Assembly (NCBI GenBank): GCA_050740255.1
Contig: JBOICV010000164.1
Coordinates: 15,035-79,034 of the forward strand
Origin: Nevskiales bacterium
Lineage (GTDB): Bacteria > Pseudomonadota > Gammaproteobacteria > Nevskiales > JBOICV01
Length of the DNA stretch: 64,000 nt
Direction: 5' to 3'
Part shown: positions 21,673 to 52,776 of the stretch, one piece after another
How the letters are laid out: each line of letters begins with the position of its first letter
How positions within the stretch are numbered: position 1 is the first letter of the stretch
The notes under the pieces: model-generated
What the model was told of the DNA's origin: nothing
What the model saw: the letters and a program-made list of their open reading frames with translations, nothing else
Database searches by the model: none
Translations under genes and position numbers: made by a program

Positions 21673-21681
21673 GAATATTAT

Positions 21682-21715
21682 TTACATCCGGTAATGTAAG
21701 AGTTAATACATTAGA
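21682..21715. promoter_or_regulatory. candidate operator array (TTACAT / TAATGTA / TACATTA motifs)
   Basis: TTACAT-CCGGTA-ATGTAA palindrome (21682-21699) followed by TAATACATTA. Located in the AT-rich divergent region between the DUF1302 operon and the Tyr-rich protein gene. Confidence 0.3.
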
Positions 21716-25662: not shown

Positions 25663-26496
25663 ATGCGTGATGCAAAAAGGATAGTCGCCGGGCTGTTGCT
25701 CGGTGCGGGGGGGTTAGCTTGCGGCCAGGCCTTTGCTGATACCACGGGTACAGTGGCGGCCACCAGCGAATATCTATTCCGCGGTGTGGAGCAGGAAAAC
25801 GGCGCCGCCGTGCAGGGCAGCCTGACCTGGAATAATCCCGGCGGCTTTTATGTGGGCGCCTGGGCTTCCAACGCAGCAATTGCCGGCGGCAACGAGCTGG
25901 ATATTTACGGCGGCTGGACCACGGAGTTGGGCAACGGCCTGAGTTTGGACCTCGGTGTGATTTACTACCTGTACTCTGAAGCCGAGGAAACGCCGGGCAG
26001 CAATAGCCTCGATTACCCGGAAGTGTACGCTGGGCTGTCGTTCGGTGGCCTGAGCGGGAAGGTATTCTATGCAGCCGACATCAACGACGAAGCCAGCGAG
26101 GCCGGCACTTGCCAGGCCAATCTGGCCGCTCTGGGTTTTGTCGGGGCGAGCTGCAATAACGATCAGGAAGGCATTTACGCAACGCTCAGCTACGCGCTCA
26201 CCGTGAAAGAGGGCTTGGATCTGACTTTCCAGGTGGGCCATAGCACTGGCGACGGCGTGGAGAATTTGATGGCCGCCGGTTTCTATACTGGCTCTGGCCC
26301 CGGTAATCTGAATGCGGGCGACGACGACAGCTACACCGACTACAGCATCACGCTGTCGAAGGATCTGGGCAATGGCATGGGCGCGAGCTTCGCCTTTGTT
26401 GATACCGATCTTGAAGCGGTTGATGGCACCGGCAACACCGTATTTGAAGACGATGGTAAGTTCGTAGTGTCCTTCAGCAAGGAATTTGCGCTGTAA
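25663..26496 (+). CDS. TorF-family putative porin (TIGR02001-like), copy 1
   Basis: 277 aa. Signal peptide, then the family N-terminal signature ATSEYLFRGVEQ..AVQGSL, and later DYPEVYAGL. Confidence 0.8.
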   Translation: MRDAKRIVAGLLLGAGGLACGQAFADTTGTVAATSEYLFRGVEQENGAAVQGSLTWNNPGGFYVGAWASNAAIAGGNELDIYGGWTTELGNGLSLDLGVIYYLYSEAEETPGSNSLDYPEVYAGLSFGGLSGKVFYAADINDEASEAGTCQANLAALGFVGASCNNDQEGIYATLSYALTVKEGLDLTFQVGHSTGDGVENLMAAGFYTGSGPGNLNAGDDDSYTDYSITLSKDLGNGMGASFAFVDTDLEAVDGTGNTVFEDDGKFVVSFSKEFAL

Positions 26497-26788: not shown

Positions 26789-27508
26789 ATGAAGCACGCA
26801 AAGCTGCTGGCCGCTGTGCTGGTCTTGTTCAGTGCGCCGGCGCTGGCCCAGGTCAGCGGCAATATCACCGCCATCAGTGAGTACATGTTCCGCGGCGTCG
26901 CCCAGGAGGGCGGCGCGGCGCTGCAGGGCAGCCTGGACTATAGCCGCGAAGACGGCTGGTATTCGGGCGTCTGGGGTTCCAATTGCAGCGAATGCGGCGG
27001 CAACGAAATTGACTTTTACGGCGGCTGGACGGGTGAAGTCGGCCGTGGCGTAACGCTCGATGCCGGCGTGGTCTATTACCTGTTTACCGAGGACGCAGAA
27101 GTCAGCGGCGCGCCGGACATCGACTATCCGGAAATCTATCTCGGCGCCGGCTATGACGGCTTGAGCGGCACGCTTTACTACAGCAATAAGCTGGTGGACG
27201 AATTGAGCGACATCCCGGGCAGCGACCAGACGGGGTTTTATTTCACCGCGGATTACACCCATGCGCTGCGCGAGGGCCTGGAATTGGTGTTGCAGGTGGG
27301 GCGCAGTTGGGGCGATGGTGTTGACGCCGTCTTAGGCGACGCCTACACCGATTACAGCGTCACCGTGGTAAAAACGCTGGACGACGGCTTCAGCCTCAGC
27401 GCCGCGGTAATCGATACCGACCTGGACGCTGATGCCACCGCCACGACACCGGCCAGGGAGGACGACCCCAAGTTTGTGGTGGGTTTGAGCAAGGATTTTG
27501 CGTTTTAA
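26789..27508 (+). CDS. TorF-family putative porin, copy 2
   Basis: 239 aa. Signal peptide, signature AISEYMFRGVAQ..ALQGSL, DYPEIYLGA, C-terminal ..SKDFAF. Confidence 0.8.
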   Translation: MKHAKLLAAVLVLFSAPALAQVSGNITAISEYMFRGVAQEGGAALQGSLDYSREDGWYSGVWGSNCSECGGNEIDFYGGWTGEVGRGVTLDAGVVYYLFTEDAEVSGAPDIDYPEIYLGAGYDGLSGTLYYSNKLVDELSDIPGSDQTGFYFTADYTHALREGLELVLQVGRSWGDGVDAVLGDAYTDYSVTVVKTLDDGFSLSAAVIDTDLDADATATTPAREDDPKFVVGLSKDFAF

Positions 27509-27656: not shown

Positions 27657-30600
27657 TCATCCCTCATCCGCCTGAACCACCAGCAAATCCTGCCCCGCCG
27701 CCACGGCGCCGCCTTCCTTGCAGAACAGATGCGTCAGGATGCCGTCGCAGGGCGCGGCCAGGGAGAATTCCATTTTCATGGATTCGACGACGACCAGGGT
27801 TTGGCCCTGTTTTACGGCGTCGCCCACCCGGGCTTCTAGCCTCCACACGCTGCCGGCGACAGGGGTTGTCACCGGGCGCGCGTGTTCGGGCAGCTCCAGT
27901 TCGCGCTCGACGCCCGCCGCCGCCAGCGTCAGGTCGTTGGCGACCACGTCCTGTCCGGCGGCCTTCCAGCGTTCGCGCTCAGCTTCGAAAGCGGCCTGCT
28001 GGCGGGCCCTGAACTCGCCGATGGAAGCGGCGTTGGCCTCCAGGAAGAGGCGGTAGTCCTTGAGGCGGAAGCGGGCGGCTTCCAGCTTCAAGCGGAATCT
28101 GCCGCTGGCGAAATCCTCGCGCAGCTTGAGCAGCTCCGCCTCGCCCACCGGGTAGAAGCGCAGCTGGTCGAAGAAGCGCAGCAACCACGGTTGCGTGAAG
28201 TCGGCCGTGCGGCGGTGGCGGTTCCACATTTGCACCGTGCGGCCGACGAACTGGTAGCCGCCAGGCCCTTCCATGCCATACACGCAGAGATAGGCGCCGC
28301 CGATGGCCACGGCATTCTCCGGGGTCCACGTGCGGGCCGGGTTGTACTTGGTGGTGACCAGCCGATGGCGCGGGTCCAGCGGCGTCGCCACCGGCGCGCC
28401 GAGGTACACGTCGCCCAGGCCCATGACCAGGTAGCTGGCATCGAACACCACCCGGTACACGTCCTCGGTGGATGCCAGCCCGTTGATGCGGCGAATGAAC
28501 TCGATGTTGCTTGGACACCAGGGCGCATCGGGCCGCACCGACTGCATGTACTTGTCGATCGCCAGCCGGGTCGCCGGGTCGTCCCAGGACAGGGGTAGAT
28601 GGACGATGCGCGATGCCACCTCCATGTCGTCGAGACTGGGCAATCCCGCTTCCAGCGCCACGATTTTTTCGATCAATTCGTCCTGATCGGCGAGGCGGGG
28701 ATCGAAGTGGATTTGCAGCGAGCGGATGCCGGGCGTGAGGTCGAGCACCCCCCCGATCCTCCCGGCGCCGATTTCGTCCCGCAGCGCCTGCATCAGCGCG
28801 TGGATGCGAAAACGCAGTGCGAGATCGAGCACCGGCGGACCCATTTCGATCAGCAGGTTCGCGTCGCCCGATTGCCGGATCACCAAGGCGGGCCTCTCGT
28901 CCTCCCGTTCAAGCTGGCGCAGTACCGGCGTGCCGAGGAGGGCGTGTGCCACCGGCAAGCTGGCGAATGCCGGCGCGGGCGAGTGAAGGCCGGCGATGGC
29001 CGCGTCCTGGGCGGCTTGCAGGGCACGCGCCTGCGCGCCGGTGAGACGCTTGAAGCGAACCGTGGCGCCCGGCTTCAATTGACCCAGCTTCCACAACTCG
29101 GCCTGAACGATGCAGGCGGGGCAGACGAAACCGCCCAGGCTGGGTCCGTCGGGACCGAGGATGACCGGCATGTCGCCGGTGAAATTGACGGCGCCGATGG
29201 CATAGGCGTTGTCGTGGATATTCGAAGGATGCAGCCCCGCCTCACCGCCGTGCGCGCGCGCCCACTGCGGCCTGGGGCCGATCAGGCGGACCCCGGTTCG
29301 GGAGGAGTTGTAGTGCACTTCCCAGGCGGTGGCGAAGAAGCTCGCGATGTCGGCCTCGGTGAAAAAATCCGGCGCGCCATGGGGGCCGTACAGCACGCCG
29401 ATTTCCCAAGCGTCGCTCAGCGTCGGTTGCAGTCGGGCGTCCAGCTCGCTCACGCTTCCGTGTCGCTCGACGGGGATACGGGCTGTGATGTGCAACACGT
29501 CACCGCTACGCAGAGTGCGCCCGCCATGGCCGCCGAACTGGCCGAGGGTGAAGGTGGATTTGGAGCCGAGGGTGTCGGGCACCTCGAAGCCTCCGGCTAC
29601 GGCCAGGTAGCTGCGCAGCCCGGCGCCCTGCACGGCGCCCAGCTTGAGCACGCTGCCCGCCGGCACCGGATGGGCCTGCCATCCGGCCACGGGCGTGCCA
29701 TCCAGGGTGGCCTGCAGGGCCGCGCCGCCGAGGGCGATCAGGCTATCGCAATTGAAGCGCAAGCTCGGTCCGGCTGCCGTGAGTTCCAGCGCCGCGGCCC
29801 CTTCACGGTTGCCCACCAGCCGGTTGGCCAGACGCATGGACAAGTTGTCCATCGGGCCGGACGGCGGCACGCCCACATCCCAATAGCCTTGCCGTCCCGG
29901 CCAGTCCTGGATGCTCGACTGCAAGCCGGGCTCCAGCACGTCGGCGGTCGCCGGCCGGTAGCGGAAGCCGTCCAGCATGCGGGTGGTCTGGCGGCCGGCG
30001 ATGAAGTCCGGACTGGCCAGCACCTGGGCCAGGTAAGCCAGGTTGGTTTCGATGCCGGCCACGGTGCTGGCCTGCAACGCAGCGATCAGCTTGGCGCGCG
30101 CCGCCTCGCGAGTCGCGCCGTGGGCGATGAGCTTGGCCAGCAGCGGGTCGTAGTTGGGCGGCACCTCGGTGCCGGCCTCGACCCAGCCGTCGACACGTAT
30201 TCCGTCCGGGTAGGCCACGGCGCTGAGCAGGCCTGTCGACGGCTGAAAATTCTTGTTGGGATCTTCAGCGTAGAGGCGGACCTGGATCGCCGCACCGTGC
30301 GGTTCGATGACGAAGCTGTCGAGCGCCGGCAACTCGCCGGCGGCCAGGCACACCATCCACTCCACCAGGTCCACGCCGGTCACGGCTTCGGTGACGCCAT
30401 GCTCCACCTGCAAACGGGTGTTCACTTCGAGGAAATAGAACGCGCCGGCGCCGACGTCATAGACGAATTCCACGGTACCGGCGGAGCGATAGTTCACCGC
30501 CTGGCCGAGCTTGACGGCGGTGGCCAGCAGAGCGGCGCGTTGCGCGTCGCTCAAGCCGGGTGCCGGCGTTTCCTCCACCACCTTCTGGTTGCGTCGCTGC

Positions 30601-31289
30601 ACCGAGCAATCGCGCTCGCCCAGGGCGATCACGCCGCCATGGCCGTCGCCGAAGATCTGTACTTCGATGTGGCGCGCGTGCTCGACGTATTTTTCGAGAT
30701 AGCTGCCGGCTTGCTTGAAGTTGGCGCGGGCCAGGCGCTCGACGGTGGCGTAGGCTTGCGCCAGTTCGTCCTCGCTGCGGATCAGGCGCAGGCCGATGCC
30801 GCCGCCGCCGGCGGTGCTCTTCAGCATCAGCGGATAGCCGATGCGCCGCGCCTCGGCGGCGGCATGGCCGGCGTCGGCCAGCAGGCCGGACCCCGGCAGC
30901 AGCGGCACGCCATTTTCTTCGGCCAGTTGCCGCGCCGTATGCTTGAGGCCGAAGTCGCGCATGTGCTGCGCCGCCGGGCCGATGAAGACAATGCCGGCAG
31001 CAGCGCAGGCGTCGGCGAAATCCGGGTTCTCGGAGAGGAAGCCGTAGCCCGGGTGGATAGCCTGGGCACCGCAGGCCTGGGCGATTTCAAGAATCCGGTC
31101 GGCCCTCAGATAACTTTCGCTGGCCGGGGCCGGGCCCAGCAGGTAAGCCTCGCCGGCCTGCCGCACATGGCGGGCGCCGGCGTCGGCGGCGGAATACACC
31201 GCCACCGACGCCACGCCCAAGCGGTCGAGAGTGCGCTGGATGCGGCAGGCGATGGCGCCGCGATTGGCGATCAGGACTTTGCTGAACAT
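27657..31289 (-). CDS. urea carboxylase / guanidine carboxylase (biotin carboxylase + KipA/KipI-like carboxyltransferase + biotinyl domain)
   Basis: 1210 aa. N-terminal [19 protein letters not shown]-grasp biotin carboxylase, central allophanate-hydrolase-subunit-like domains, C-terminal biotin attachment VESMKME. The substrate (urea vs guanidine) cannot be read from sequence by eye. Confidence 0.95.
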
Positions 31290-31305
31290 CGATTACCGGT
31301 GCGGG

Positions 31306-31971
31306 TTACGGCGCATCCCACAACAGAAACCGCACCGGGGTCGGGTTGTAGGCATTGCAGGGATTGTTGAGCTGCGGGCAGTTGGAGGCGAGCAGCCACA
31401 GGTCCATCTCGGCGCGCAGTTCCACATACTTGCCCGGCGCGGAGACGCCGTCCGCGAAACTGAGTTCGCCCGCCGCTGTCACCGGCACGTTCATGAAGAA
31501 GTTGATGTTGGGCACCAGGTCGCGCTTGCCGATGCCGATGTCGGCGTGCTGCAGGGCGGTCAGGAAATTGTCGCGGCAACTGTGCATGAACTTTTTCTGC
31601 AAGGCGTAGCGCACCGAATTGCTCTCGGCGGCACAGGCTCCGCCGAGCGTGTCATGACGCCCGCAGGTATCGGCGACGAGGGTCAGCATCAGCTTGCCGT
31701 CGTTGCTGTACAGCGCCGAATCCGTGGTCAGGTAGATGCCGCCCTGGCGCAGCAGGGTTTGCGTCGCGCTGTAGTGTTCGGCCGGGTCGTGCCGGTTGTA
31801 GAACAGCGCGTCCACCGCCTGGTTGCCTTCCAGGTCGACGATGCGCACGGTCTGCCCGCGCCCGATCTCGAGCAGGTAAGGCTCGCCGGCGGGCAGGGTG
31901 TGGTCGAGCACGGCGGCGGCGGGGTCGAAGCGGCTTTCGCGGATGCGGATGGCCGCGCTGGCATCGGTCAT
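31306..31971 (-). CDS. urea-amidolyase-associated protein UAAP2 (DUF1989; carboxyguanidine deiminase subunit-like)
   Basis: 221 aa. Paralogous by eye to the upstream 270-aa protein, in the canonical position immediately upstream of the carboxylase. Confidence 0.8.
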   Translation of the reverse strand: MTDASAAIRIRESRFDPAAAVLDHTLPAGEPYLLEIGRGQTVRIVDLEGNQAVDALFYNRHDPAEHYSATQTLLRQGGIYLTTDSALYSNDGKLMLTLVADTCGRHDTLGGACAAESNSVRYALQKKFMHSCRDNFLTALQHADIGIGKRDLVPNINFFMNVPVTAAGELSFADGVSAPGKYVELRAEMDLWLLASNCPQLNNPCNAYNPTPVRFLLWDAP

Positions 31972-31980
31972 GGCAGTTCT

Positions 31981-32793
31981 CTATCCGATGAGATAAAGCA
32001 TTTCGGCGTTGTGGATGGCGCGGGCGTTCTCGGGACGGAAGCCGCGGCAGTAATCGTCTTTCGGCGCCGGTCCGGAGCGCCAGGCCGCCAGGCCGACCGG
32101 CTTCGGCGCGTAGGCGGGCGACGGATCGAGCGGGTGCGGCGCGGTCGAACAGGCGAGCAGCACGTCCATCTCGAAGCGCAGTTCCACATGATCGCCGGGC
32201 TGGCTGTGATCGGGAACGAAATGGAAACGCCCTTCGCCGTCCACGCTCACCTTGGAGAAGAAATTCACCGGCGCCGTCAGGTCGCGCTTGCCCAAGCCGT
32301 ACTTGCCCAGTTCGATCAGCAGGCCGTCGCGCCCGGAGCGGTACATGCCGTTGCGCGCCGCCTGGTAGTTGCGCACGCCATATTTGCGCTGCATCGAGCC
32401 GGCGTCCAGCAGCAGGCCCAGGGGGTCGTGCCAGCCCAGCGTATCGGCGGTGATCGAGGCCAGGGCGCGACCCATGTCGCTCATCAGCACGTGGCCGCGA
32501 GTGTAGTGGGCCGTGTGCTGTGCCTTGAGCGAGTCCGGCATGTTGTAGCGCTCCAGCTTTTCGCGCGCCGAGTACAACACCAGGCTGATGTTGGCGCCGG
32601 CTGCCAGCGCCGTCAGGCGCAGCGTGGTGCCGCGCGCCAGCAGATACGACCAGTGGCCGCCGCCGGGAACTCGCTCGGAGAACAGCACCGACCCGGCCGC
32701 CAGGTCGGGCGCGAAACTGCGCCAGTGTTCCGGCGCATCCACCGGCGCGCTCGGGGGCGGATTTTGCGGAGTGAATTCAGCCGGGGTTTGCAT
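31981..32793 (-). CDS. urea-amidolyase-associated protein UAAP1 (DUF1989; carboxyguanidine deiminase subunit-like)
   Basis: 270 aa, in the canonical UAAP1-UAAP2-carboxylase order. Confidence 0.8.
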   Translation of the reverse strand: MQTPAEFTPQNPPPSAPVDAPEHWRSFAPDLAAGSVLFSERVPGGGHWSYLLARGTTLRLTALAAGANISLVLYSAREKLERYNMPDSLKAQHTAHYTRGHVLMSDMGRALASITADTLGWHDPLGLLLDAGSMQRKYGVRNYQAARNGMYRSGRDGLLIELGKYGLGKRDLTAPVNFFSKVSVDGEGRFHFVPDHSQPGDHVELRFEMDVLLACSTAPHPLDPSPAYAPKPVGLAAWRSGPAPKDDYCRGFRPENARAIHNAEMLYLIG

Positions 32794-33298
32794 GATGTTC
32801 CACGTTCGAAGAGCGCTTGGCGCGGGTGGCGGAAAGGGCAGTCGCCGGCAGCGGATGCAGGGGCGGCATCATGGCCGCCAGTAGCTGCAGCTGGCCGGTC
32901 ACCACGCCGCGCAGCGTGATCATATCGTTGGCGATGTCGCGCAAGCGTTTGGCAGGACCCTGGATCAGGATCACTTCCAGCAACTGGTCCTCGCTCAGAT
33001 GCACATGCAAGGAACTGATCACCTCGTCGAGATGGCGGTATTGGAGATCGGCCAGCTTCTTTAGCAAGCCCCGGGTGAGGCGGTCGTAGAGCAGCGTGAC
33101 GGTGCCCACCATGACGTGGTTGCCCAGTTCGCGCTTGTGCTCGGCCAACTGGTAGTTGACCATCTCGCCGATGGCCTGCGAGCGGCTGCCATAGCCGCGG
33201 CTCTGCACCATCCGGTCCAATTCCGCGAGCAGGTCTGGCGGCAGCGAGATGCTGATGCGGCTCACCAGGCGGTTGCTTGCATGCTTTTTTTTTGGCAT
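32777..33298 (-). CDS. NikR-family ribbon-helix-helix regulator with a degenerate metal site
   Basis: ATG 33298 within ORF 32777..33673. The N-terminus SRISISLPPDLLAELDRMVQSRGYGSRSQAIGEMV matches the NikR RHH (E. coli RVTITLDDDLLETLD..RGYNNRSEAIRD). The C-domain has SLHVHLSEDQLLEV versus E. coli [14 protein letters not shown]. The 3' end overlaps the UAAP1 start by 17 nt. Confidence 0.8.
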   Translation of the reverse strand: MPKKKHASNRLVSRISISLPPDLLAELDRMVQSRGYGSRSQAIGEMVNYQLAEHKRELGNHVMVGTVTLLYDRLTRGLLKKLADLQYRHLDEVISSLHVHLSEDQLLEVILIQGPAKRLRDIANDMITLRGVVTGQLQLLAAMMPPLHPLPATALSATRAKRSSNVEHHANPG

Positions 33299-33308
33299 TC
33301 CGTCCCCG

Positions 33309-34670
33309 CTAAAACAGGTAACTGTAGCGTTCGATCTCCCACTGGCTGACGCTGAGGTGATACGCCTCCCATTCCTCGGTTTTATAACGAATGAATTCGT
33401 CGCGCAATTCCTTGCCCAAGGTCGCTTGCACCAGTGGGTCGGCGGCGAAGGCGGCCACCGCCTCCTGCAGCGTCTGCGGCAGGAACTCGATGCCGCGGGC
33501 TTGGCGCTGTTCCTCGCTGATGGCATAGAGGTTGTCTTCGTTCGGGTTGCCCGGATCGAGTTTTTCGCGGATGCCTTCGAGTCCCGCCGCCAGCACCAGC
33601 GTCGCGGCGAGGTAGGGGTTGACCGCGCCGTCGGCGTTGCGCGACTCGCAGCGCCCACCGCCGGCCGGAACACGCACCGAGTTGGTCCGGTTGTTGGAAC
33701 CGTAGGAGTTGAACACGGGAGCCCACGAGTAGTAGCTCATCGCGCCGCGCCGCACCAGGCGCTTGTAGCTGTTTACCGTGGGGGCGAACACCGCGCACAG
33801 CGCGCGGCCGTGCTTGAGCATGCCGGCGATGAACTGGTAGCCCAGGGGCGTGAGCCCGATGCCGCGCCGGTCCTCCTGCGGGTCGCAGGCGAACAGGTTG
33901 CGGCCGCTGCCCGGATCGTAGAGCGACAGGTTGAAGTGGGCGCCGTTGCCGGTCTTGTCGGCGAAGGGCTTGGGCATCATGGTGGCGAGCAGGCCCTGTT
34001 CCCTGGCGTAGTGCTTGGCCATGAAGCGGAAGAAGATCAGGCGGTCGCAGGTGGTCAGGGCATCGGCATAGTTGAAGTCGAACTCGAACTGGCCGTTGGC
34101 GTCTTCGTGATCGAAGGAATACAGATCCCAACCCAGGCCGTTGATGGCCGTCGCCATCTGGTCCAACCACGGAAAGCTATTGGTGAAACCGCGCAGGTCG
34201 TAGCAAGGCTTGGTGAGCTTGTCATCGGCATCCGGCACCGACAGGCTGCCGTCGGCATGTTGCTTCAGCAGGAAGATCTCGCACTCGATGCCGAGGTTCA
34301 TGCCGAAGCCCATTTGTGCCGCTCGCGCCAACTGGCTTTGCAGCGCCACCCGGGTGTTGAGCGGATAGGGCCGGCCCTGGTAATGGTTGTCGGCGGGAAT
34401 CCAGGCGATCTTGGGCTCCCAGGGCAACTGGATCAGGCGGCTGAAATCCGGGACCGAGGTTATTTCGTCGTCATTGGGCGCCTGGCCCAGACCGTCCAGC
34501 GCATAGCCGGTGTAGCGCTCGGAACCGTGCGCCATAGCTTGCAGATGTTCGATGGGAACCACCTTGGCCTTGGGTATGCCGTGGATATCGACGTAGGCAC
34601 CGATGCAGTACTTGACCCCCTTTTCGGACAGCTCTTGCTGCAGGCGGGAGACAGCATCGATGGCGGACAT
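33309..34670 (-). CDS. glutamine-synthetase-family ligase (GlnA-like / gamma-glutamyl-amine ligase type)
   Basis: 453 aa. GS beta-grasp N-domain and catalytic-domain motifs (ECEFFL-like [22 protein letters not shown]). Confidence 0.85.
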
Positions 34671-34698
34671 GGTCTTTCCTCAGGGGCATGCAAGCGGG

Positions 34699-35493
34699 TC
34701 AGAAATCGGCGGTTACCGAGGTAGCGTAGGGCTGGTCCAGCGGGGGGTTCTCGGCCATCCCACGGCGGACCAGGTCGCTCAAGTCCTCGACCAGCCAGTC
34801 GAACCAGCGCGCGCCTTTCTCGGCGGTGGCCAGGCTGGGCTGGCCGGTGACGCCGTTGCGGCTGCTGCGGTTGACCGGATGGGCGAAGACGCAGCCGCCG
34901 CTGCGATCGGGATCGTCGGCGGCGGCTAGCCGTTCGGGACGTACTCCGCCGGGCGCGATAGCCAGCATCAGCGAAGTCTCGGCATCGTTGGCATGCCAGT
35001 CGGCGGCATCGGCAAAAAAATGGAATTGGCGCACCCGCTCGCTGATGTTGGCGGTATCGATCACGGCCACCATCAAGTCGTCATGCTCGGCGCGCAACAT
35101 TTCCAGCGCGCAGCGCAGGGGCGCGGCATTGGTCACGTGGGCGTTGACGATGAACAGCCGGCGCACGCCGCTGTGATAGGCCCAGTCGCCGATCTGCTTG
35201 ACCAGTTCGATCAGGGTGATCGGCTGCACCGCGAGGGTGCCGGGCCAGCGTTGGCTATGACCGATGGAACAGCCGTAAGGCAAAGTGGGCAGCATCGGTA
35301 CGCCGGTTTTTTCGGCGACGGCGGCGCATAGGTGTTCGGCGATCACCGTGTCCACGCCGCAGCCCAGATGCGGGCCATGTTGTTCGGTGGCGCCGACCGG
35401 CAGCAGGGCAGCGTGTCCGACCCGCGCCAAAACCGCGGGTATCTCGGACCAGGTCAGATCGGACCAGCGCCGGGAGCTTGGCCTATTCGACAT
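34699..35493 (-). CDS. creatininase-family amidohydrolase
   Basis: 264 aa with the family motif [13 protein letters not shown] and downstream His/Asp/Glu metal ligands. Overlaps the ABC ATPase stop by 11 nt. Confidence 0.8.
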
Positions 35494-36397
35494 TGTCGTT
35501 GACGTCCGTGAGCCGGATCAGCTGCGGCTTGACCGTCGCGTCCTCTTCCGCATCGAAGCTGACCGGCGGATGGATCAGTTCTTCCAGGCGTGCCCTGGTG
35601 GCGCGGAATTCAGCAGAGTTGAACTGCGCCGGAGCGCGCGGCCGCGGTACCGGTACCTCGATGAATTCCTGCACCTCGCCCGGCTGCGCCTTGAGCACCA
35701 GGATGCGGTCCGCCAGATAGGCGGCTTCGTCGAGATCGTGGGTGATGAACAGCACCGTGATGTCGATGTTCTTCCAGATGTCGAGCAGGTGCGATTGCAT
35801 GCGCGCCCGGGTCTGCGCGTCGAGCGCGCCGAAGGGCTCATCCATGAGCAGGATGCGGGGCTGATTGACCAGGGCGCGGGCGATCGCCACTCGTTGCCGC
35901 ATGCCGCCCGACAATTGATGCGGATAGGCGTCGGCGAACTTCGACAGGCCGACCAGGTCCAGCCACAGCAGGGCGTCGCGCTCGGCCTCGTCGCGGCCGT
36001 AGCCGCTCGTCTGGGGACCGAACATCACGTTCTTCTTGACCGTGAGCCAGGGGAACAGGGAATAGCCCTGGAACACCATGCCGCGGTCGCGGCCCGCGCC
36101 AAGCACTGGCTTTCCGTCCAGCAACACCTCCCCCGAACTATGGCTTTCCAGGCCGGCGAGGATGCGGATCAGGGTGGACTTGCCGCAGCCCGAGGGCCCG
36201 ATCGCGCAGATGAATTCGCGGCGATGGATCTTGAAGCTGACGTTGCGCAAGGCGTCCACTGCTCCCTGGGACGAGACGAAACGCTTGTTGAGATCGCGCA
36301 CTTCGAGGATGACTTCGCGCCGGTGGATTTTTTCGAAGCGCGCCTTGACCGCATCCGACTGCTGCAGGTAGTGGGGCCGGGGCAGTTCCGCTTGCAT
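35483..36397 (-). CDS. ABC transporter ATP-binding protein (NitT/TauT nitrate/sulfonate/bicarbonate family)
   Basis: 304 aa. Walker [10 protein letters not shown], signature LSGGMRQR, Walker B LLMDEP. Confidence 0.9.
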
Positions 36398-36400: not shown

Positions 36401-37363
36401 TCAGCTCCGCTCCTGCGGACGGTCCCAGGGGAACAAGCGGCGGCCGAGCCGGTCGAGCGCCGCGTCGGTGCCGAAGCCGATGATGCCGATGATGATGATC
36501 GCGGCGTAGACGTTGTCGAAGTGCTGATAGCGCGCCTGCTGGGTGATAAAAAAGGTGATGCCCGAGCTGGAGCCGATCAGTTCCGCCACGATCAGGTAGG
36601 TCCAGGCCCAGCCCAGCAGGATGCGCTGGTCGCGGTAGAGGTCGGGCAGGATGCCGGGGACCACCACCCGCGTCAGCAGGCGCAGGCGGCGCGCGCCCAG
36701 GGTCTTGGCCGCCTCGAGAATGGTGGTGTCGAGTTTACGCGTGGTGTTGGCGACGATCAGCACCTGCTGGAACAGGGTGCCGATGACGATGATGGCGATC
36801 TTGGGACTGTCGTAAATGCCCAGCACGGCTACCGCCAACGCGCCGAAGGCGGGCGCGGGCAGGTAGCGGAAGAATTCGATGAAAGGCTCGTTGAGCCGGG
36901 ACAGGGTGACGTAGGTGCCCGAGAGAATGCCCAGCGGCACGCCGATCAGCGAGGAGAGCAGGAAGCCCCAGGCGATGATCTGAACGCTATGCCACAGACT
37001 CTCGTGCAGCCAGGGCGCGTCCCTCTGTTCCGGCGCGCGAGTGAAGGCGGTGTAGAAGGCGGCCGCCACCCGATGCGGCGCCGGCAGGTAAATCGGGTTG
37101 GCCGCGCGGCCCTTGGGCAGCGCTAGTCCCTGGGCGCGCATCTGGGCGACCTCGTCGGCGAAGACATCCTTGTCTACCAGCATGCCGACCTGGAAATAAT
37201 CCACGGCGCCGACCTCCTCGACCAGCACCTTGGGGTGCCAGACGAAGGGGACGTAGCTGACCACGCACCAGAGCAGGGTCGGCAGCAGAAACGAGCCGAG
37301 CGTCAGCAGCGAGCGCCGGCGTCGTGGGCGCCATTGGGGAATCATGTGGACGCCGCTGCCCAT
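36401..37363 (-). CDS. ABC transporter permease (NitT/TauT family)
   Basis: ORF 36401..37399; ATG 37363 is preceded by GGGAGG 5 nt upstream. Multiple TM segments, BPD-transport EAA-like loop (EAAKTLGA). Confidence 0.8.
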   Translation of the reverse strand: MGSGVHMIPQWRPRRRRSLLTLGSFLLPTLLWCVVSYVPFVWHPKVLVEEVGAVDYFQVGMLVDKDVFADEVAQMRAQGLALPKGRAANPIYLPAPHRVAAAFYTAFTRAPEQRDAPWLHESLWHSVQIIAWGFLLSSLIGVPLGILSGTYVTLSRLNEPFIEFFRYLPAPAFGALAVAVLGIYDSPKIAIIVIGTLFQQVLIVANTTRKLDTTILEAAKTLGARRLRLLTRVVVPGILPDLYRDQRILLGWAWTYLIVAELIGSSSGITFFITQQARYQHFDNVYAAIIIIGIIGFGTDAALDRLGRRLFPWDRPQERS

Positions 37364-37413
37364 GGAGGCCTCCCGCCGACGCCGGGTCGGTGGGAACAAA
37401 AAAATAAACTCGG

Positions 37414-38412
37414 TTACTCGGCGTTGGTGAAGGACGGATCGAGATAGCTGTCAACGTTCTGTGGCGCCTTGTAGACGCCGTTAGTGACGTTGAAGCTGTC
37501 GGCTACCTTGGTGGAGCCATAGAGGGACTCGAAGCCGTCGCCCTCGACGTAAATCTTCCTGCCTTCACTCAGACTGAGGAGCTTGGTGCCCTTGAGCAGG
37601 GGCAGGTAAGCCTCGGGCGCAATGCCCACCCGGGCCGCCATGATCTTGACCGCATCCGGCTGGGTCTTGGGGTCCTCGATGTAGCTCACCACCCGATCCC
37701 AGACCTTGACCACCTTCTGCCAATCGGCGCGCCGGCTCTTGACGCTGGCTGGACTGACGGCGAGCACGTCGTAGATCAGCCCCGGTTCGTCGGCCGAGGT
37801 GTAGATGGGATGGGAGCCCGGCACGGCTTTCATCGCCTCGCCGATGACCGGCTGCCAGGCGCCTACCGCGGCGATGTCGGCCGCGCCCAGTATTTGCGGC
37901 ATTTCGTTGGTCTTGGCGTTGACCAGGGTGAGGTCGGATTCCTTGAGACCGGCTTTCTCCAGGCCGTTAAGCAACAGCAGGTGCTCCACCAGGCCGGCTT
38001 CCACCGCCACCTTCTTGCCCTTCAGGTCCTTGAGGGACTTGTACTGGGGCTTGGCGACGATCATGTCGTTGCCGTTGGAATAGTCGGTCAGCATCACCAT
38101 GATGCTCTTGGCGCCGCCGGCGCCGGTCACCAGCGCGTCGCCATTGGTCATGGTGACGGCATCAATCTTGCCGGCGGTGAAGGCGTCCATCGAGGCGGAA
38201 TAATCGAACCACTCGAAAGTGACGTCTACACCCGCCTCCTTGAACCAAGCCTTGTCTATCGCCACCTGCCAGGCCACCCAGCCCGGCCAGTCGCTATAGC
38301 CGATCTTGAGCGGCGCAGCCGCCTGGGTGGCGACGGATGCCAGCGTGGTGGCGCCCACCAGCAGGCCTGCGAACCAGCGTTTCACCCTTCCCCCGGTCCT
38401 GTTCGTTTCCAT
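37414..38412 (-). CDS. ABC transporter periplasmic substrate-binding protein (NMT1/THI5-like)
   Basis: ORF 37414..38556; ATG 38412 is preceded by AAGGAG 7 nt upstream. It gives signal peptide ..LVGATTLASVATQAAA followed by PLKIGYSDWPGW. Confidence 0.85.
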   Translation of the reverse strand: METNRTGGRVKRWFAGLLVGATTLASVATQAAAPLKIGYSDWPGWVAWQVAIDKAWFKEAGVDVTFEWFDYSASMDAFTAGKIDAVTMTNGDALVTGAGGAKSIMVMLTDYSNGNDMIVAKPQYKSLKDLKGKKVAVEAGLVEHLLLLNGLEKAGLKESDLTLVNAKTNEMPQILGAADIAAVGAWQPVIGEAMKAVPGSHPIYTSADEPGLIYDVLAVSPASVKSRRADWQKVVKVWDRVVSYIEDPKTQPDAVKIMAARVGIAPEAYLPLLKGTKLLSLSEGRKIYVEGDGFESLYGSTKVADSFNVTNGVYKAPQNVDSYLDPSFTNAE

Positions 38413-38434
38413 GGTTCGACTCCTTGAAGATGCG

Positions 38435-38462
38435 GTATTACGATTCAACACGAAAGTCATAC
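38435..38462 (-). promoter_or_regulatory. NikR-type operator candidate GTATGA-N16-TAATAC
   Basis: The minus strand reads GTATGA-ctttcgtgttgaatcg-TAATAC (plus strand GTATTA 38435-38440, TCATAC 38457-38462). This is one mismatch from the E. coli nik operator GTATGA-N16-TCATAC. It lies between the sigma54 promoter and the SD/ATG of the first operon gene. Confidence 0.5.
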
Positions 38463-38482
38463 TTGGCGCGTCCTCTATCTCT

Positions 38483-38498
38483 AGCAAGAACGGGGCCA
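38483..38498 (-). promoter_or_regulatory. sigma54 (-24/-12) promoter of the ABC-to-carboxylase operon
   Basis: The minus strand reads TGGCCC-CGTTC-TTGCT, with exact GG-N10-GC spacing versus consensus TGGCAC-N5-TTGCW. It is about 70 nt upstream of ATG 38412. Confidence 0.6.
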
Positions 38499-38814
38499 GT
38501 GCCGGGTCAGCGGTCAAGCGTCTGTTTGCGCCAGGTTTGTGGTTTTTCGGGGGCACAGGCGGCCCTTGGGCGCCCGTTCAGCCTTGTGCGAGTGCGCCGA
38601 TGCACCAAAGTAAGCGCGTAGGGAAGCGCACCGGGTTAGCGGCGCGTAGCCGGTTCCGTGTCATTCACGCACCACTGTCTTGGTCCTGGTGTCCGTGACT
38701 TACGCGGGAGATCGCGCAGACCGGCCCTAACTCAGGTTGACCCACGACCGGTTGCGGAGTAATTTCGCTGGGAGGGGCGCTGACATTCCTATTCTTTTGG
38801 GGGACAAGCACGAC

Positions 38815-40635
38815 GTGCAGGAGCGCGCCGATGCGTCCGGCCTCGGCCTCGATTTGACGACCCTCACGGCCCGGTACGGGGCCGGCGCTACGACCCCCTC
38901 GGAGGTCGTCCGCGTCGTCTACCGGCGCATCCCCGAGTACCTCTCGAACCCCCTCTGGATCACCCTCCGGCCCGAGGAGGACGTCCTCGGCGAGGCCCTG
39001 GCCCTCGAAGCGCGCGGGCCCGCGCGAGGGCCGCTCTACGGACTGCCCTTCGCGGTCAAGGACAACCTCGACTGCGCGGGGTTGCCGACGACCGCGGCCT
39101 GCCCGGCCCTGACCTATATCCCCGCGAAGAGCGCCCATGCGGTGCAACGTCTCCTGGATGCCGGGGCCCTCCTCATCGGCAAGACCAACCTGGACCAGCT
39201 CGCGACCGGGCTCACGGGTACTCGTTCGCCGCACGGTGTCTGCCGCAACCTGTTCGATGAGCGTTACATCGCCGGGGGCTCGAGCAGCGGCTCGGCGCTC
39301 TCGGTGGCCGCGGGTCTCGTCTCTTTCGCGCTCGGTACCGACACGGCCGGCTCGGGCCGGGTGCCGGCGGCGTTCAACAACATCGTGGGTCTCAAGCCGA
39401 CGCGCGGGCTGGTGAGCACCCGCGGGCTGGTGCCGGCCTGCCGCTCGCTCGACTGCGTCTCGGTCTTTGCGCTCTCCTCGACCGACGCGCTGGCGGTCCT
39501 GCGCGTGCTTGCCGGCCACGACCCCGAGGACCCGTATTCGCGGTCGGACGCCTCGGTGATCGGGCTTGCGCCCGTCGCGCCGCCGGCGAGCTTTCGGTTC
39601 GGCGTCCCGAACGCGCTCGAGTTCTTCGGCGACGGCGAGGCGGAGCGGCTCTTTCACGCCGCGCTGCGACGCCTCGAGACGCTCGGCGGCACAGCCATCG
39701 AGATCGATTTCGCCGCGTACCGGGAAGCCGGGCGGCTCCTCTACGGCGGCCCCTGGCTCGCCGAGCGCTTCCTCGCACTCGCGCCCCTCCTGGCGCGCGA
39801 TCCCGATGTCCTGCACCCCGTCGTGCGCGCCGTGGTCGAACCCGGGGGACGACACTCGGCTGCCGAGTGTTTCGCCGCGCAGCATCGGCTACAGGCACTC
39901 GTCCAGGCCACCCGCCGAGACTGGGCGGCGATGGACCTCCTCGTCACCCCCACGGCCGGGACGTGTTATACGCGCGCGGCCATTGAGGAGGAGCCCATCC
40001 GGCGCAACGCCGATCTCGGGTACTACACGAACTTCGTCAACCTCATGGATCTGTGCGCCCTGGCCGTGCCCGCCGGCTTCACCGGCTCGGGTCTGCCGTT
40101 CGGGGTGTCGCTGCTCGCACCCCCCTTCCGTGAAGGCTTCTTGTGCGCGCTGGGCCATGCGCTACACGCCGCGCAAGGGTTGACGGTGGGGGCGACCCGC
40201 CATCGTCTGCCTGTCGGTCCGGCCGCGCTACCAGCGGACGGCACGACGGTGCGGCTCTGCGTCTGCGGTGCGCACATGTCGGGACTGCCCTTGAACGGCG
40301 AGCTGCTGCGGCTGGGTGCGCGGTTTGTCGGACCCGCGCGCACGGCGCCGCGTTACCGTCTTTATTGCCTCGATCGCTTCGCGCCCCCGCGGCCGGGGCT
40401 CGTGCGCGAGGCGCTCGGCGCCGCGATCGAGGTCGAGGTGTGGGCGCTGCCGGTCGCGGGCTTCGGCGCCCTGGTCGCCGGGATTCCCGCCCCACTCGCG
40501 ATCGGACGGGTCGAGCTCGAGACCGGGGAGGAGGTCGCGGGCTTCCTGTGCGAGGCCCACGCGACCGAGGGCGCCCGCGACATCACCACGCATGGCGGTT
40601 GGCGCGGGTATCTGGCCACCGGGGGCGGGCCATGA
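38815..40635 (+). CDS. atzF: allophanate hydrolase (amidase-signature family)
   Basis: ORF 38737..40635. Amidase signature GGSSSGSA and the C-terminal AtzF-type domain are present. The start is uncertain: TTG 38737 coincides with a -35-like TTGACC, so I prefer GTG 38815, preceded by GGGGGA. Confidence 0.85.
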   Translation: MQERADASGLGLDLTTLTARYGAGATTPSEVVRVVYRRIPEYLSNPLWITLRPEEDVLGEALALEARGPARGPLYGLPFAVKDNLDCAGLPTTAACPALTYIPAKSAHAVQRLLDAGALLIGKTNLDQLATGLTGTRSPHGVCRNLFDERYIAGGSSSGSALSVAAGLVSFALGTDTAGSGRVPAAFNNIVGLKPTRGLVSTRGLVPACRSLDCVSVFALSSTDALAVLRVLAGHDPEDPYSRSDASVIGLAPVAPPASFRFGVPNALEFFGDGEAERLFHAALRRLETLGGTAIEIDFAAYREAGRLLYGGPWLAERFLALAPLLARDPDVLHPVVRAVVEPGGRHSAAECFAAQHRLQALVQATRRDWAAMDLLVTPTAGTCYTRAAIEEEPIRRNADLGYYTNFVNLMDLCALAVPAGFTGSGLPFGVSLLAPPFREGFLCALGHALHAAQGLTVGATRHRLPVGPAALPADGTTVRLCVCGAHMSGLPLNGELLRLGARFVGPARTAPRYRLYCLDRFAPPRPGLVREALGAAIEVEVWALPVAGFGALVAGIPAPLAIGRVELETGEEVAGFLCEAHATEGARDITTHGGWRGYLATGGGP

Positions 40636-41780: not shown

Positions 41781-42557
41781 TTACAAGCTTCGCGCAACCG
41801 TGAACACCACGCGCCCTTCGCACACGTCCTCGCCCACACCCGCGAACAGCAAACAGTCTTTCTCGTTCAGATCGGTGTCGGTGTAGGCCAGCGTGAAATT
41901 CAGGCCGGCCGCCGCCAGTCCGAGCGCGACGCTGTAGTCCGTGTAGCTGTCCTCGAGGGCGACGGGGAGGGGTGGCACGAGCGTTTCCTTATCCAGCGTC
42001 TGATGGCCGACGTGGAAGCCCAGCGAGAAATTATTCTGTAACGGTATGCCCAGGTTCGCTTCGTAGTAAAAACCGTCATCGAAGGCAAGCCCGAAGAAAT
42101 CCGGCGAATAGTGGATTTTGCCGTTGATATTGAAAGTGCCGAAGTCGTAGAACAGCGCCGGGGTCAGCTCGAGATAGTCGTATTCCAGCTGGCTGTCGGT
42201 GCCCGGGTAGAGGAAGTACGTCAGATTGATGTCCCAGCCGGCTTTTTCGTTCGGGAACTTGCCACCCCAGCCGACATAGATATCGAACTCGACTTGCCCG
42301 TCGTCAACCTCAAGGGGATCGGGTAGCAGTTCGTTTTCGTTGAAGTCCACATTGGAACCCCATACTCCGGCGTAAAACCCGTTGTCCTCCTTGAAGTCTA
42401 TGCTGCCCTGAAACGCCGGGTCTTGTGAACTTTGCGAGATGCCGCGGAAGACGTAATCGCTGGTTAAATAAACGGTGCCGCTAAAGCCGGTCGCGAGCGC
42501 TGCGCTACTCAATCCCGCCAAGGCGGCCGCCACACCTGCTGTGAAAATCTTACGCAT
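41781..42557 (-). CDS. TorF-family putative porin, copy 3
   Basis: 258 aa. Signal peptide, then the signature LTSDYVFRGISQ..AFQGSIDF. Confidence 0.8.
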   Translation of the reverse strand: MRKIFTAGVAAALAGLSSAALATGFSGTVYLTSDYVFRGISQSSQDPAFQGSIDFKEDNGFYAGVWGSNVDFNENELLPDPLEVDDGQVEFDIYVGWGGKFPNEKAGWDINLTYFLYPGTDSQLEYDYLELTPALFYDFGTFNINGKIHYSPDFFGLAFDDGFYYEANLGIPLQNNFSLGFHVGHQTLDKETLVPPLPVALEDSYTDYSVALGLAAAGLNFTLAYTDTDLNEKDCLLFAGVGEDVCEGRVVFTVARSL

Positions 42558-45173: not shown

Positions 45174-46889
45174 ATGATCCGTAAACTATTACTTGTTTCG
45201 CTGCTCGCTGTGTGTGCGGGCGCAAGCTATGCCGAAGTCGCGCCGGAAGCGGCGGCTGCGTTGGCGGCCGAGCAGGCGCGGCTCGCACAGGCCGAGGAGC
45301 CCGCCGCAGAACCGGCTCCAGCGATGGAGCCGGAGCCTGCGCCCGCGCCGAAGCCGGCAGCGAAACCGGCCGCGAAGGCAAAACCGGCGCCGCGGGCCGC
45401 GGCTGTCAACACGCAGCAGGTAACCAATATCGCCACCGAAGTCGCCGAGCGCGTGGCGGCTGAAGCGGTGGCCAAGGCACTGGCCGACGCGGAAGCCGCC
45501 AAGCAAGCTGCGGAAGAAGCGGCGGTAGCCGAAGCTGCACCGGCGGAGGAAGCGCCAAAAGCCCCCGTTTACAACGAGGGCAACGTCAGCTGGATGCTAA
45601 CGGCGACCGCTTTCGTGCTGTTGATGTCAATCCCAGGCTTGGCCTTGTTCTACGGCGGCATGGTGCGCACCAAGAACATGCTGTCCACGCTGATGCAGAT
45701 CTTCACGATTTTCTGCGTGATCTCGATCTTGTGGGTGATCTACGGCTATAGCGTGGCCTTCTCCAACGGCAATCCCTTCTTCGGCGGATTCAGCAAGCTG
45801 CTGCTGGCGGGTGTGGTTTACGATGCGAACGGTTTCTTCGTGCCGACCGCGACTTTCAGCAAAGGCGTGTTGATCCCGGAACTGATCTTCGCGATGTTCC
45901 AGCTCACCTTCGCCGCGATCACGGTTTGCCTGGTCGCCGGCGGTTTCGCCGAGCGCATGAAATTCTCCGCGGTGCTGCTGTTCTCGGTGATCTGGTTCAC
46001 CTTCTCCTACCTGCCGATGGCGCATATGGTCTGGTGGTGGCCGGGGCCGGACGCCTACACTTCGGCTGAAGTGGTCGCCGAAATGAACGCGACCGCAGGC
46101 TGGCTGTGGCAGATGGGCGCGCTCGACTTCGCCGGCGGCACGGTGGTGCACATCAACGCCGGTGTCGCGGGTCTGGTGGCGGCGCTGTTCGTCGGCAAGC
46201 GTCTGGGTTACGGCAAGATACCCATGCCGCCGCACAGCCTGACGATGAGCATGCTCGGCGCGTCCCTGTTGTGGTTCGGCTGGTTCGGCTTCAACGCCGG
46301 CTCCAACCTCGAAGCCAATGGCTACGCGGTACTGGCCTTCGCCAACACGCTGTTCGCCACTGCGGTCGCGGCGGTGACCTGGCTGCTGGCCGAGTGGATC
46401 GTCAAGGGCAAGCCCTCGCTGCTGGGCATCATCTCCGGCGCCGTCGCCGGCCTGGTCGGCATCACGCCGGCCTGCGGCTTCGTCGGCATAGAAGGCGCGC
46501 TCGTCATAGGCCTGTCCGCCGGCTTGCTGTGCTTCGTGGCCGTAACCTTCATCAAGAAGATGCTCGGTTACGACGATGCGCTGGATGCCTTCGGCGTACA
46601 TGCCATCGGCGGCATGGTTGGCGCGATTCTGACCGGCGTGTTCGTCAACCCGAAGCTGGGCGGCGCCGGTTATGTGACTGACGGCTGGCTGGTGCCGACC
46701 TTCGGCTACGACTCCGCGCAAATCATGATTCAGGTGAAGGCGGCGGCGGTCGCGGCGGTCTGGAGCGCGGTCGTCAGCTCGGTGGCGCTGTTGCTCATCA
46801 AGTTCACCATCGGTCTGCGCCCGAGCGAAGAGTCCGAACGCGAGGGCCTGGACATCGCCGAGCATGGTGAAACCGCCTACAACTACTAA
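45174..46889 (+). CDS. amtB: ammonium transporter AmtB with a ~120-aa Ala/Glu/Pro-rich N-terminal extension
   Basis: 571 aa. Signal peptide, low-complexity region to about residue 140, then the canonical Amt core (DFAGGTVVHINAG, twin-His context). Confidence 0.9.
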   Translation: MIRKLLLVSLLAVCAGASYAEVAPEAAAALAAEQARLAQAEEPAAEPAPAMEPEPAPAPKPAAKPAAKAKPAPRAAAVNTQQVTNIATEVAERVAAEAVAKALADAEAAKQAAEEAAVAEAAPAEEAPKAPVYNEGNVSWMLTATAFVLLMSIPGLALFYGGMVRTKNMLSTLMQIFTIFCVISILWVIYGYSVAFSNGNPFFGGFSKLLLAGVVYDANGFFVPTATFSKGVLIPELIFAMFQLTFAAITVCLVAGGFAERMKFSAVLLFSVIWFTFSYLPMAHMVWWWPGPDAYTSAEVVAEMNATAGWLWQMGALDFAGGTVVHINAGVAGLVAALFVGKRLGYGKIPMPPHSLTMSMLGASLLWFGWFGFNAGSNLEANGYAVLAFANTLFATAVAAVTWLLAEWIVKGKPSLLGIISGAVAGLVGITPACGFVGIEGALVIGLSAGLLCFVAVTFIKKMLGYDDALDAFGVHAIGGMVGAILTGVFVNPKLGGAGYVTDGWLVPTFGYDSAQIMIQVKAAAVAAVWSAVVSSVALLLIKFTIGLRPSEESEREGLDIAEHGETAYNY

Positions 46890-52704: not shown

Positions 52705-52776
52705 AGGAATTCCTTGCGTCACGGCAAAAGTGCGCGGATTATACGCGCCTCTAACGACTGTTCCTGTGATTCCTAG

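Follow-up and report, generated by a model that had tools for sequence, protein, structure and literature searches.

What does a NikR-family regulator sense when its gene sits in an operon that imports and degrades a nitrogen compound rather than nickel? The question is raised by a 64,000-nucleotide (nt) stretch of a Nevskiales metagenome-assembled genome (MAG; GenBank assembly GCA_050740255.1, contig JBOICV010000164.1, forward-strand positions 15,035 to 79,034), hereafter the window, in which the gene for a NikR-like protein is flanked by those for an ABC importer, a creatininase-family hydrolase and a type III glutamine synthetase (GS)-like ligase on one side, and for the DUF1989 proteins UAAP1 and UAAP2 and a biotin-dependent urea/guanidine carboxylase on the other. 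The protein belongs to a clade that has lost the canonical nickel site and that accompanies operons of this type. The reading that we prefer, tentatively and at a probability a little short of even, is that the NikR-like protein, having lost that site, is a dedicated, autoregulated repressor of the guanidine/urea-carboxylase operon that is released by a small molecule.

The high-affinity square-planar nickel site of Escherichia coli NikR comprises His87, His89 and Cys95 together with His76 of the neighbouring chain (PMC7055735). HMMER alignments of the window protein to NikR from E. coli (1q5v, E 2e-18), Pyrococcus horikoshii (2bj1, E 9e-30) and Helicobacter pylori are ungapped across the metal-site region and place His98 and His100 at His87 and His89, Tyr87 at His76 and Leu106 at Cys95. 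This is the register that the original prediction had reached by eye; aligning the protein properly did not restore the full set of four ligands. Because Tyr87 and Leu106 replace His76 and Cys95, the predicted consequence is that the canonical His3Cys square-planar site cannot form, in agreement with what had been proposed, and the same ligands are lost in 120 of 120 close homologues. Relative to E. coli NikR (1q5v, 2hza, 2hzv), the equivalents of His87, His89 and Glu97 are kept, whereas His76 is Tyr, Cys95 is Leu, Glu30 is Gln, His62 is Arg and His123 is Thr. The low-affinity/K+ site is thereby altered across the close homologues, with Gln at the Glu30 position in 119 of 120 and Glu or Asp at that of Asp34.

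The extent of this loss was mapped at three depths. The close set comprised the 120 nearest homologues in the protein database, over 100 of them at 67–82% identity, with hosts among the Gallionellaceae, Sideroxydans, Rhodocyclaceae, Steroidobacteraceae and Denitratisoma. In their MAFFT alignment His98 is present in 119 and His100 in 118 of 120 sequences, the His76 position is occupied by Tyr (97) or Phe (23), and that of Cys95 by Leu, Met, Ile or Val. A wider search covered 1.8 billion cluster representatives, and the approximately 135 NikR-family representatives nearest to the query were aligned; only 64 carry the HHHC tetrad, the remainder showing varied combinations such as RHQR, RHHT, HHHT, HHQT and RHFS. 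Finally, regulators were examined in their genomic context at 120 loci: 40 from a scan of one genome per species, and 80, at 40–71% identity to the window protein, from a metagenome scan seeded with six sequences of distant RHQR-type members. Tetrads at these loci were YHHM (25), RHQR (22), HHHT (15), YHHL (10), HHQT (9), AHHT (8) and others, among them RQQV and RSLV, in which nearly all candidate His ligands are gone while a C-terminal tail motif, described below, is kept. The Cys95 position is never Cys in 240 relatives (the 120 close homologues and the members at the 120 loci). On sequence evidence, then, Cys95 is lost clade-wide, and His76 and His89 are lost variably between subfamilies.

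It might be argued that the protein is an ordinary nickel-responsive NikR whose missing ligands are an artefact of alignment. Annotation leans that way: the protein scores 117 against the NikR equivalog model NF003381 (cutoff 105) and 101 against NF002815 (cutoff 83), and an identical database protein from a Nevskiales MAG bears the record name "nickel-responsive transcriptional regulator NikR". However, the protein falls short of the TIGR02793 cutoff (97, where 175 is required), the three HMMER alignments, each independent and ungapped, agree with the MAFFT alignments of 120 and about 135 sequences, and the 64 canonical representatives show HHHC in the very same columns. The artefact is excluded at the sequence level, and we consider the probability of an ordinary nickel-responsive NikR here to be negligible.

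The protein is nonetheless a member of the NikR family by fold, architecture and operator type. It shares with E. coli NikR the arrangement of a ribbon-helix-helix (RHH) domain followed by an ACT-like NikR_C domain, and its base-reading β-strand residues Arg14, Ser16 and Ser18, which correspond to E. coli Arg3, Thr5 and Thr7, are invariant in the 120 close homologues. Pfam and an AlphaFold2 monomer model, in line with the HMM search and structure prediction suggested at the outset, and Foldseek all returned NikR domains and the NikR fold. The model has an overall predicted local distance difference test (pLDDT) score of 84 and is confident for residues 11–140, with values above 90 across the NikR_C region and of about 50 for the tail, conserved motif included. 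Every top Foldseek match was a NikR, the C-terminal domain superposing on nickel-bound NikR C-domains with a root mean square deviation (rmsd) of 0.6–1.2 Å; the best overall superposition of the model was on the DNA-bound H. pylori chain 6mrj_B (rmsd 2.2 Å). By sequence the closest solved relative is P. horikoshii NikR (2bj1/2bj7, about 40% identity), which shares the DE(V/I)ISSLHVH motif with its Glu92 equivalent; unlike the window protein, it is a nickel regulator with a full His3Cys site and no PPxH tail. Three features of the family are missing from the NikR-like protein, namely the high-affinity nickel site, Glu30 of the low-affinity site and a nickel regulon.

The protein begins MPKKKHASNRLVSRISISLPPDLL; its ATG follows the GS-like stop codon by 10 nt, and its own stop (32777) falls inside UAAP1 (ATG 32793), confirming the 17-nt overlap with the next gene that had been noted. 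A longer, GTG-started open reading frame (ORF) at 32777..33673 overlaps the GS-like gene and was dismissed as an artefact of ORF finding. At codons 3–5 (AAA AAA AAG; 33281-33291) there is a stretch of nine A, read as nine T on the plus strand, a homopolymer liable to slippage or sequencing error, and the residues before Val12 are not conserved among homologues.

The association of this clade with one operon type is tight. Operon genes lie within 6 kb of the regulator in 112 of 120 loci (40/40 genome and 72/80 metagenome loci), and the eight others are short contigs or contig ends; this bears out the proposal of an uncharacterised NikR subfamily tied to nitrogen catabolism and to UAAP/carboxylase neighbourhoods. 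The genome-scan hosts include Thiobacillus thioparus DSM 505 and Parasulfuritortus cantonensis, together with MAGs of Gallionella, Sideroxydans, Hydrogenophilales, Rhodocyclaceae and Methylophilaceae. In all 40 genome loci the regulator ends the order substrate-binding protein (SBP)–permease–ATPase–creatininase-like–GS-like–nikR-like, the creatininase/GS pair being absent in one; about 30 carry on with UAAP1–UAAP2–carboxylase–allophanate hydrolase (AH), and in some Gallionellaceae the operon stops at the regulator and is followed by glnK-amtB or unrelated genes. The operons at the metagenome loci are of this type too, though the creatininase/GS pair is often absent. Among outgroup representatives, whose contigs were of 1–3 kb, one (P0121) adjoins an NMT1-type SBP gene. 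The regulator thus accompanies the importer–CgdAB–carboxylase–AH core with or without the creatininase/GS pair. That accessory pair (33309-35493 in the window) is conserved in most loci, between the ABC importer and the regulator, and may process a methylated or cyclic guanidine precursor. AH is the last operon gene in nearly all relatives and is divergent in the window, so the window locus has been rearranged.

Where this regulator would act was sought upstream of the SBP gene, the first of the operon. An unbiased half-site tally yielded the inverted repeat TATTAC-N14-GTAATA, which extends to a clade consensus dyad of 28 bp, GTATTAC-N14-GTAATAC. With one mismatch allowed in 12 core positions, the dyad occurs once per locus, 42–80 nt before the SBP start, in 33 of the 35 close loci that contain the region, and nowhere else in 680 kb. 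It is present in distant subfamilies too, with completely different spacers. The dyad can equally be read as GTATTA-N16-TAATAC, in which form its geometry is that of the nik operator of E. coli (GTATGA-N16-TCATAC; PMC7055735) and its half-site nearly so; the window copy, GTATGA-N16-TAATAC, has the E. coli left half. A predicted operator of NikR type fits the conserved Arg14/Ser16/Ser18 reading strand. H. pylori NikR, which has the same fold and acts on AT-rich half-sites, offers a precedent for control of nitrogen-related (urease) genes, although its site is canonical and nickel-dependent and it regulates nickel uptake, nickel storage and urease. The alternative that the dyad forms an mRNA hairpin was rejected: the half-site sequence is conserved and not the pairing, and deviations are non-compensatory (TATGAC/GTAATA in the window, TATTAC/GTAACA and TATTAC/TTAATA elsewhere).

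Loci of the RHQR type and of related subfamilies carry a second dyad 42–85 nt upstream of the nikR-like gene, at the head of a nikR–UAAP–carboxylase–AH unit, which would indicate direct autoregulation and two operator-controlled transcription units. This second copy, often GTATTAC-N14-TTAATAC, was seen at L047-L055, L059-L061, L065-L068, L078, L082, L088 and L090. A separate dyad-like match in the window, TATTAT-N14-GTAAGA (21676-21701, two mismatches), lies about 100 nt upstream of an ORF at 21806 and is at chance level.

In dyad-aligned loci a sigma-54-type element, TGGCAC-N5-TTGCT, is usually found 14 nt upstream of the dyad. Of 79 operator copies, 41 have the degenerate pattern TGGYMY-N5-YTGCW in the 60 nt preceding them, its background frequency being 0.027 per kb; the loci with a second operator copy lack it. 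Numbered from this promoter, the dyad covers roughly +4 to +31 in most loci and, in the window, roughly +11 to +38. Just downstream of the sigma-54 promoter it would be placed for repression, as is the site of E. coli NikR, which likewise lies at the head of an ABC importer operon; the sigma-54-type promoter is a point of difference. A scan of 38350-38800 for sigma-70 promoters and terminators found nothing. Some 60–75 nt upstream of the sigma-54 element, loci L001-L034 share a conserved AT-rich block (for example TTGTATTCATATGGATAGAT in Thiobacillus, AATATCAATATAAACAA in Gallionellaceae), which may be an activator or integration host factor (IHF) site.

The promoter architecture bears on the possibility that the regulator is a general nitrogen-status sensor whose ACT-like domain binds glutamine or 2-oxoglutarate. 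ACT-like domains commonly bind amino acids, and the whole neighbourhood is devoted to nitrogen scavenging. The sigma-54 promoter, the usual route for nitrogen status, is already at the operon, however, and the regulator is tied strictly to one pathway and not to several nitrogen operons. We therefore judge such a sensor improbable, only the ordinary nickel-responsive NikR ranking lower.

If the old ligands are dispensable, which residues are not? Comparison of 55 non-redundant clade members with 64 canonical sequences identified conserved polar and other positions that are specific to the clade: Glu92 (55/55), Gln113 (55/55), Pro145 (55/55), His148 (53/55) and His54 (47/55). His98 (51/55) and Glu108 are common to the clade and to canonical NikR. 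The original prediction had suggested that the ACT-like domain was repurposed for another ligand. Use of the former nickel pocket for this is weakened, since its positions differ between subfamilies of one operon type (YHHL/M, HHHT, HHQT, AHHT, RHQR, RQQV and others). Clade-wide conservation falls instead on Glu92, Gln113, Pro145, His148 and, for the most part, His54 and His98.

These same histidines give some substance to the idea that the protein still senses a metal, nickel or another divalent ion, through a rebuilt site made, for example, of His98, His100 and His148, to which His54 or Glu92 might be added. Its ancestor was a nickel sensor, His98, His148 and His54 recur across the non-redundant clade at the frequencies just given, and HHHT-type members retain three of the four ligands. 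There is also a physiological logic: alternative routes for guanidine and urea are nickel-dependent (PMC12186494; PMC11410670), so that with nickel plentiful the cheaper guanidinase or urease route would serve and the ATP-costly carboxylase operon would be repressed. Set against this, the ligand that gives the square-planar site, Cys95, is never present, the remaining old ligand positions accept A, S, V, R, Q or L without any change of operon context, and RQQV and RSLV members retain the tail motif without nearly all of the candidate His. Nor is the setting one of nickel metabolism: no nickel-related gene (urease, hydrogenase, Hyp, Nik/Cbi) was found among the 30 other window ORFs scanned, and nickel families are absent from the 25 commonest Pfam families of 150 non-operon neighbour ORFs, with two weak NicO matches only. 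On balance we hold a rebuilt metal sensor to be unlikely, though it is the strongest competitor to a repressor released by a small molecule.

The C-terminus adds a second novelty. The protein runs about 33 residues beyond the end of E. coli NikR, close to the tail of about 35 residues first described; the correction is that residues 141–150 are conserved and only about residues 151–173 are variable. Within the conserved ten-residue PPLHP extension, which E. coli NikR lacks, Pro145 is found in 120, Pro146 in 119 and His148 in 115 of 120 close homologues (per-column conservation). A hallmark of the clade is the pattern [ILVM][ILVM]P[PQ][LVI]H, which every complete member from the 120 loci carries; among complete cluster representatives, a loose form of it was seen in 39 of the 62 that are non-canonical and in none of the 50 that are canonical. 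From residue 156 on, the tail is unconserved, with gaps in 69–110 of 120 close homologues. The earlier suggestion that His168-His169 in this tail supply replacement metal ligands does not hold, as 84–97 of 120 close homologues have gaps there.

Such a terminus invites a different explanation, in which the protein binds its operator constitutively, without any small ligand, and its activity depends either on how much of it autoregulation allows or on a partner protein docked on the conserved PPxHP tail. The adjacent GS-like enzyme, PII or a housekeeping GS might be such a partner, much as TnrA/GlnR have C-terminal tails for this purpose. In the window subfamily the former pocket is filled by hydrophobic residues (Tyr/Phe87, Leu/Met106), the sole clade-wide novelty is a proline-rich terminal motif typical of short linear interaction motifs, the gene directly follows the GS-like gene in most close loci, and Amt and GlnK genes are frequent neighbours. 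Yet many loci without the GS-like gene keep the tail motif (L054, L056, L058, L062-64), no partner was identified, and the invariance of Glu92 and Gln113 within the ACT-like domain suggests a binding site in the domain itself. This explanation seems to us somewhat less probable than a rebuilt metal site and somewhat more so than a nitrogen-status sensor.

The DUF1989 pair UAAP1/UAAP2, annotated as urea-amidolyase-associated proteins, is regarded in recent papers as carboxyguanidine deiminase (PMC11410670, PMC12186494), and guanidine and urea carboxylases differ by Asp versus Asn at Kluyveromyces lactis position 1330, with Asp1584 conserved (PMC11410670). Asp is present at position 1330 in 53 of the 53 relatives' carboxylases in which the region was recovered (GAT or GAC codons). 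The Rfam guanidine-II riboswitch lies directly upstream of the carboxylase gene at 5 of 15 scanned loci, and paired GGACGNCC hairpins at about -52 and -23 are found at 28 of 31 close and 4 of 25 distant loci. Tandem GGGACGNCCC hairpins of guanidine-II (mini-ykkC) type lie within the operon 20–60 nt upstream of the carboxylase across L001-L040 (for example L027:11962-12006 and L016:11925-11972); many guanidine-II copies have ACGY and not ACGR loops and fall under the Rfam threshold. Because of the guanidine-carboxylase signature and the guanidine-II riboswitches, the pathway of the relatives is, on predicted function, guanidine assimilation.

The window departs from its relatives. Aligned to 3va7/5i8i, its carboxylase has Asn702 (AAT, 29186-29184) at position 1330 and keeps Asp at 1584, and its pathway is possibly that of urea. 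The 19-nt gap between UAAP2 and the carboxylase (31290-31305) has no guanidine-II hairpin, and no riboswitch was found either in the whole window at the Rfam gathering threshold or at E<=1 in 38300-38800. The CgdAB-like genes are intact despite Asn702, and models matched above cutoff in the window operon include TIGR03425 and TIGR03424 (the CgdA/CgdB pair), TIGR02713 and NF006043. Asn702 could be a recent switch toward urea or a codon error of the MAG.

Taken together, a model for the NikR-like protein can be proposed. A tetramer would bind the 28-bp dyad and block open-complex formation or early elongation at its own operon. Nitrogen limitation would be signalled separately, through sigma-54 and an activator, and the NikR-like protein would provide a second, pathway-specific input. 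A small molecule of the pathway would then release the repressor from DNA; guanidine is the likeliest, but it might instead be urea or an imported precursor. Guanidine is our leading guess and the simplest effector because the regulator travels with the importer–CgdAB–carboxylase–AH core whether or not accessory genes or a riboswitch are present; in most of the distant loci no other specific regulator can be seen. In the window, urea may be the effector, given Asn702 and the missing riboswitch. The signal would be sensed by the remodelled C-terminal domain, with Glu92, Gln113 and His148, plus His54 and His98, as candidate residues; the old nickel ligands are probably not the sensing residues because they vary across subfamilies that share one context. 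From the ferredoxin-like strand order we infer that the end of β4 (Gln113), the α3-β3 loop (Glu92), the linker (His54) and the tail after β5 should cluster, distant from the old nickel site.

Several points weigh against this model. The effector is purely our supposition, and operator binding and repression are predicted. The guanidine-II riboswitch in many loci means that a second guanidine sensor is not required, and the conserved His54, His98 and His148 with Glu92/Glu108 could form a non-canonical metal site. The conserved tail has a pLDDT of about 50 in the AlphaFold2 monomer, so that the residue cluster rests on topology. In the window, the sigma-54 element is imperfect (TGGCCC), and the urea-type Asn of the carboxylase and lack of a riboswitch mean that the effector may differ from that of the relatives.

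A comparison with known guanidine control is instructive. Enterobacterial importer/CgdAB genes are preceded by a guanidine-I riboswitch (PMC12186494). Neither in the window nor in any of the 15 scanned loci was one found at the head of the operon, where the NikR-like operator and sigma-54 promoter are located instead. Guanidine-II is retained before the carboxylase in most close relatives. The difference is one of kind, as a predicted DNA-acting protein repressor stands in place of an RNA aptamer, and guanidine binding is surmised here from context. The positions of all features are collected in Table 1.

Table 1. Positions of the nikR-like gene, its control elements and the neighbouring operon genes in the window
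Feature	Positions	Strand	Remarks
nikR-like gene, 173 aa	33298..32777	-	ATG at 33298, stop at 32779-32777
RHH domain (Pfam RHH_1, E 4e-7)	33143..33259	-	residues 14-52
NikR_C (ACT-like) domain (Pfam, E 1.5e-24)	32882..33109	-	residues 64-139
Former Ni-ligand codon, Tyr87	33040-33038	-
Former Ni-ligand codon, His98	33007-33005	-
Former Ni-ligand codon, His100	33001-32999	-
Former Ni-ligand codon, Leu106	32983-32981	-
Conserved extension AAMMPPLHPL	32849..32878	-	residues 141-150; conserved His is His148
Variable tail, including His168-His169	32780..32848	-	residues 151-173; overlaps UAAP1 start
Predicted operator GTATGAC-TTTCGTGTTGAATC-GTAATAC	38462..38435	-	1 mismatch; ends 22 nt before SBP start codon
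Sigma-54-type promoter-like element TGGCCC-CGTTC-TTGCT	38498..38483	-	from comparison of loci
ABC substrate-binding protein (NMT1/SsuA-like)	37414..38412	-	first gene of operon; start ATG 38412 after AAGGAG
ABC permease	36401..37399	-	domain match
ABC ATPase	35483..36397	-	domain match
Creatininase-family hydrolase, accessory	34699..35493	-	domain match
Type III GS-like ligase	33309..34670	-	nearest solved structure glutamate--methylamine ligase (9qur, E 8e-118)
UAAP1 (DUF1989; carboxyguanidine deiminase subunit family)	31981..32793	-
UAAP2 (DUF1989; carboxyguanidine deiminase subunit family)	31306..31971	-
Biotin-dependent urea/guanidine carboxylase	27657..31289	-	Asn at residue 702 (K. lactis 1330)
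Allophanate hydrolase	38737..40635	+	divergent from operon head

Further genes surround the operon. Ammonium transporters are the commonest Pfam family among the 150 non-operon neighbour ORFs (9), and Gcw_chp occurs 4 times; in the window itself, ammonium-transporter genes (45174-46889 and 47422-48717, +) and three paralogous Gcw_chp outer-membrane protein genes (25663-26496 and 26789-27508, +; 41781-42557, -) flank the operon. The 30 other window ORFs include a PPK2 gene. Genes for arginine decarboxylase and spermidine synthase (51850-54657), about 12 kb from the operon, might supply guanidino compounds (agmatine) locally, though nothing links them to it. At 1253-1348 (+), in DNA ascribed to a gammaproteobacterial MAG, there is a match to the Rfam family anti-hemB (Burkholderia sRNA 7), at 51.6 bits against a threshold of 49.5.

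A full-text literature search returned no paper that connects urea/guanidine carboxylase operons with a regulator of the NikR, CopG or RHH type, although an earlier mention in a gene-neighbourhood figure is possible, and no paper describing NikR homologues without nickel ligands. A 2025 review names riboswitches as the only known guanidine receptors and considers guanidine-binding transcription factors still to be found (PMC12186494). The present clade, with members in Gallionellaceae, Thiobacillus, Rhodocyclaceae, Methylophilaceae, Nevskiales and many uncultured bacteria, is a concrete candidate for such a factor, with a defined predicted 28-bp operator and with cultured hosts in Thiobacillus thioparus DSM 505, Sideroxydans lithotrophicus and Parasulfuritortus cantonensis. 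We regard as a bolder proposition, distinctly less probable than the repressor model but worth stating, that the clade is the first guanidine-sensing protein transcription factor, derived from a nickel sensor by loss of Cys95 and gain of the PPxH motif and replacing the guanidine-I riboswitch at operon heads; if the clade does sense guanidine, it would be the first protein, rather than RNA, switch for a guanidine pathway.

There is a practical consequence for annotation. NF003381 and public records call the clade "nickel-responsive", a label that would corrupt nickel-regulon reconstructions in many genomes, and its members should not be named nickel-responsive regulators. For the NikR family, the clade represents the reuse of a metalloregulator scaffold for a nitrogen-catabolic operon, and its graded natural series, HHHC, HHHT, HHQT, YHHL, RHQR and RQQV, lends itself to tracing the decay of a metal site and the rise of a new sensing role.

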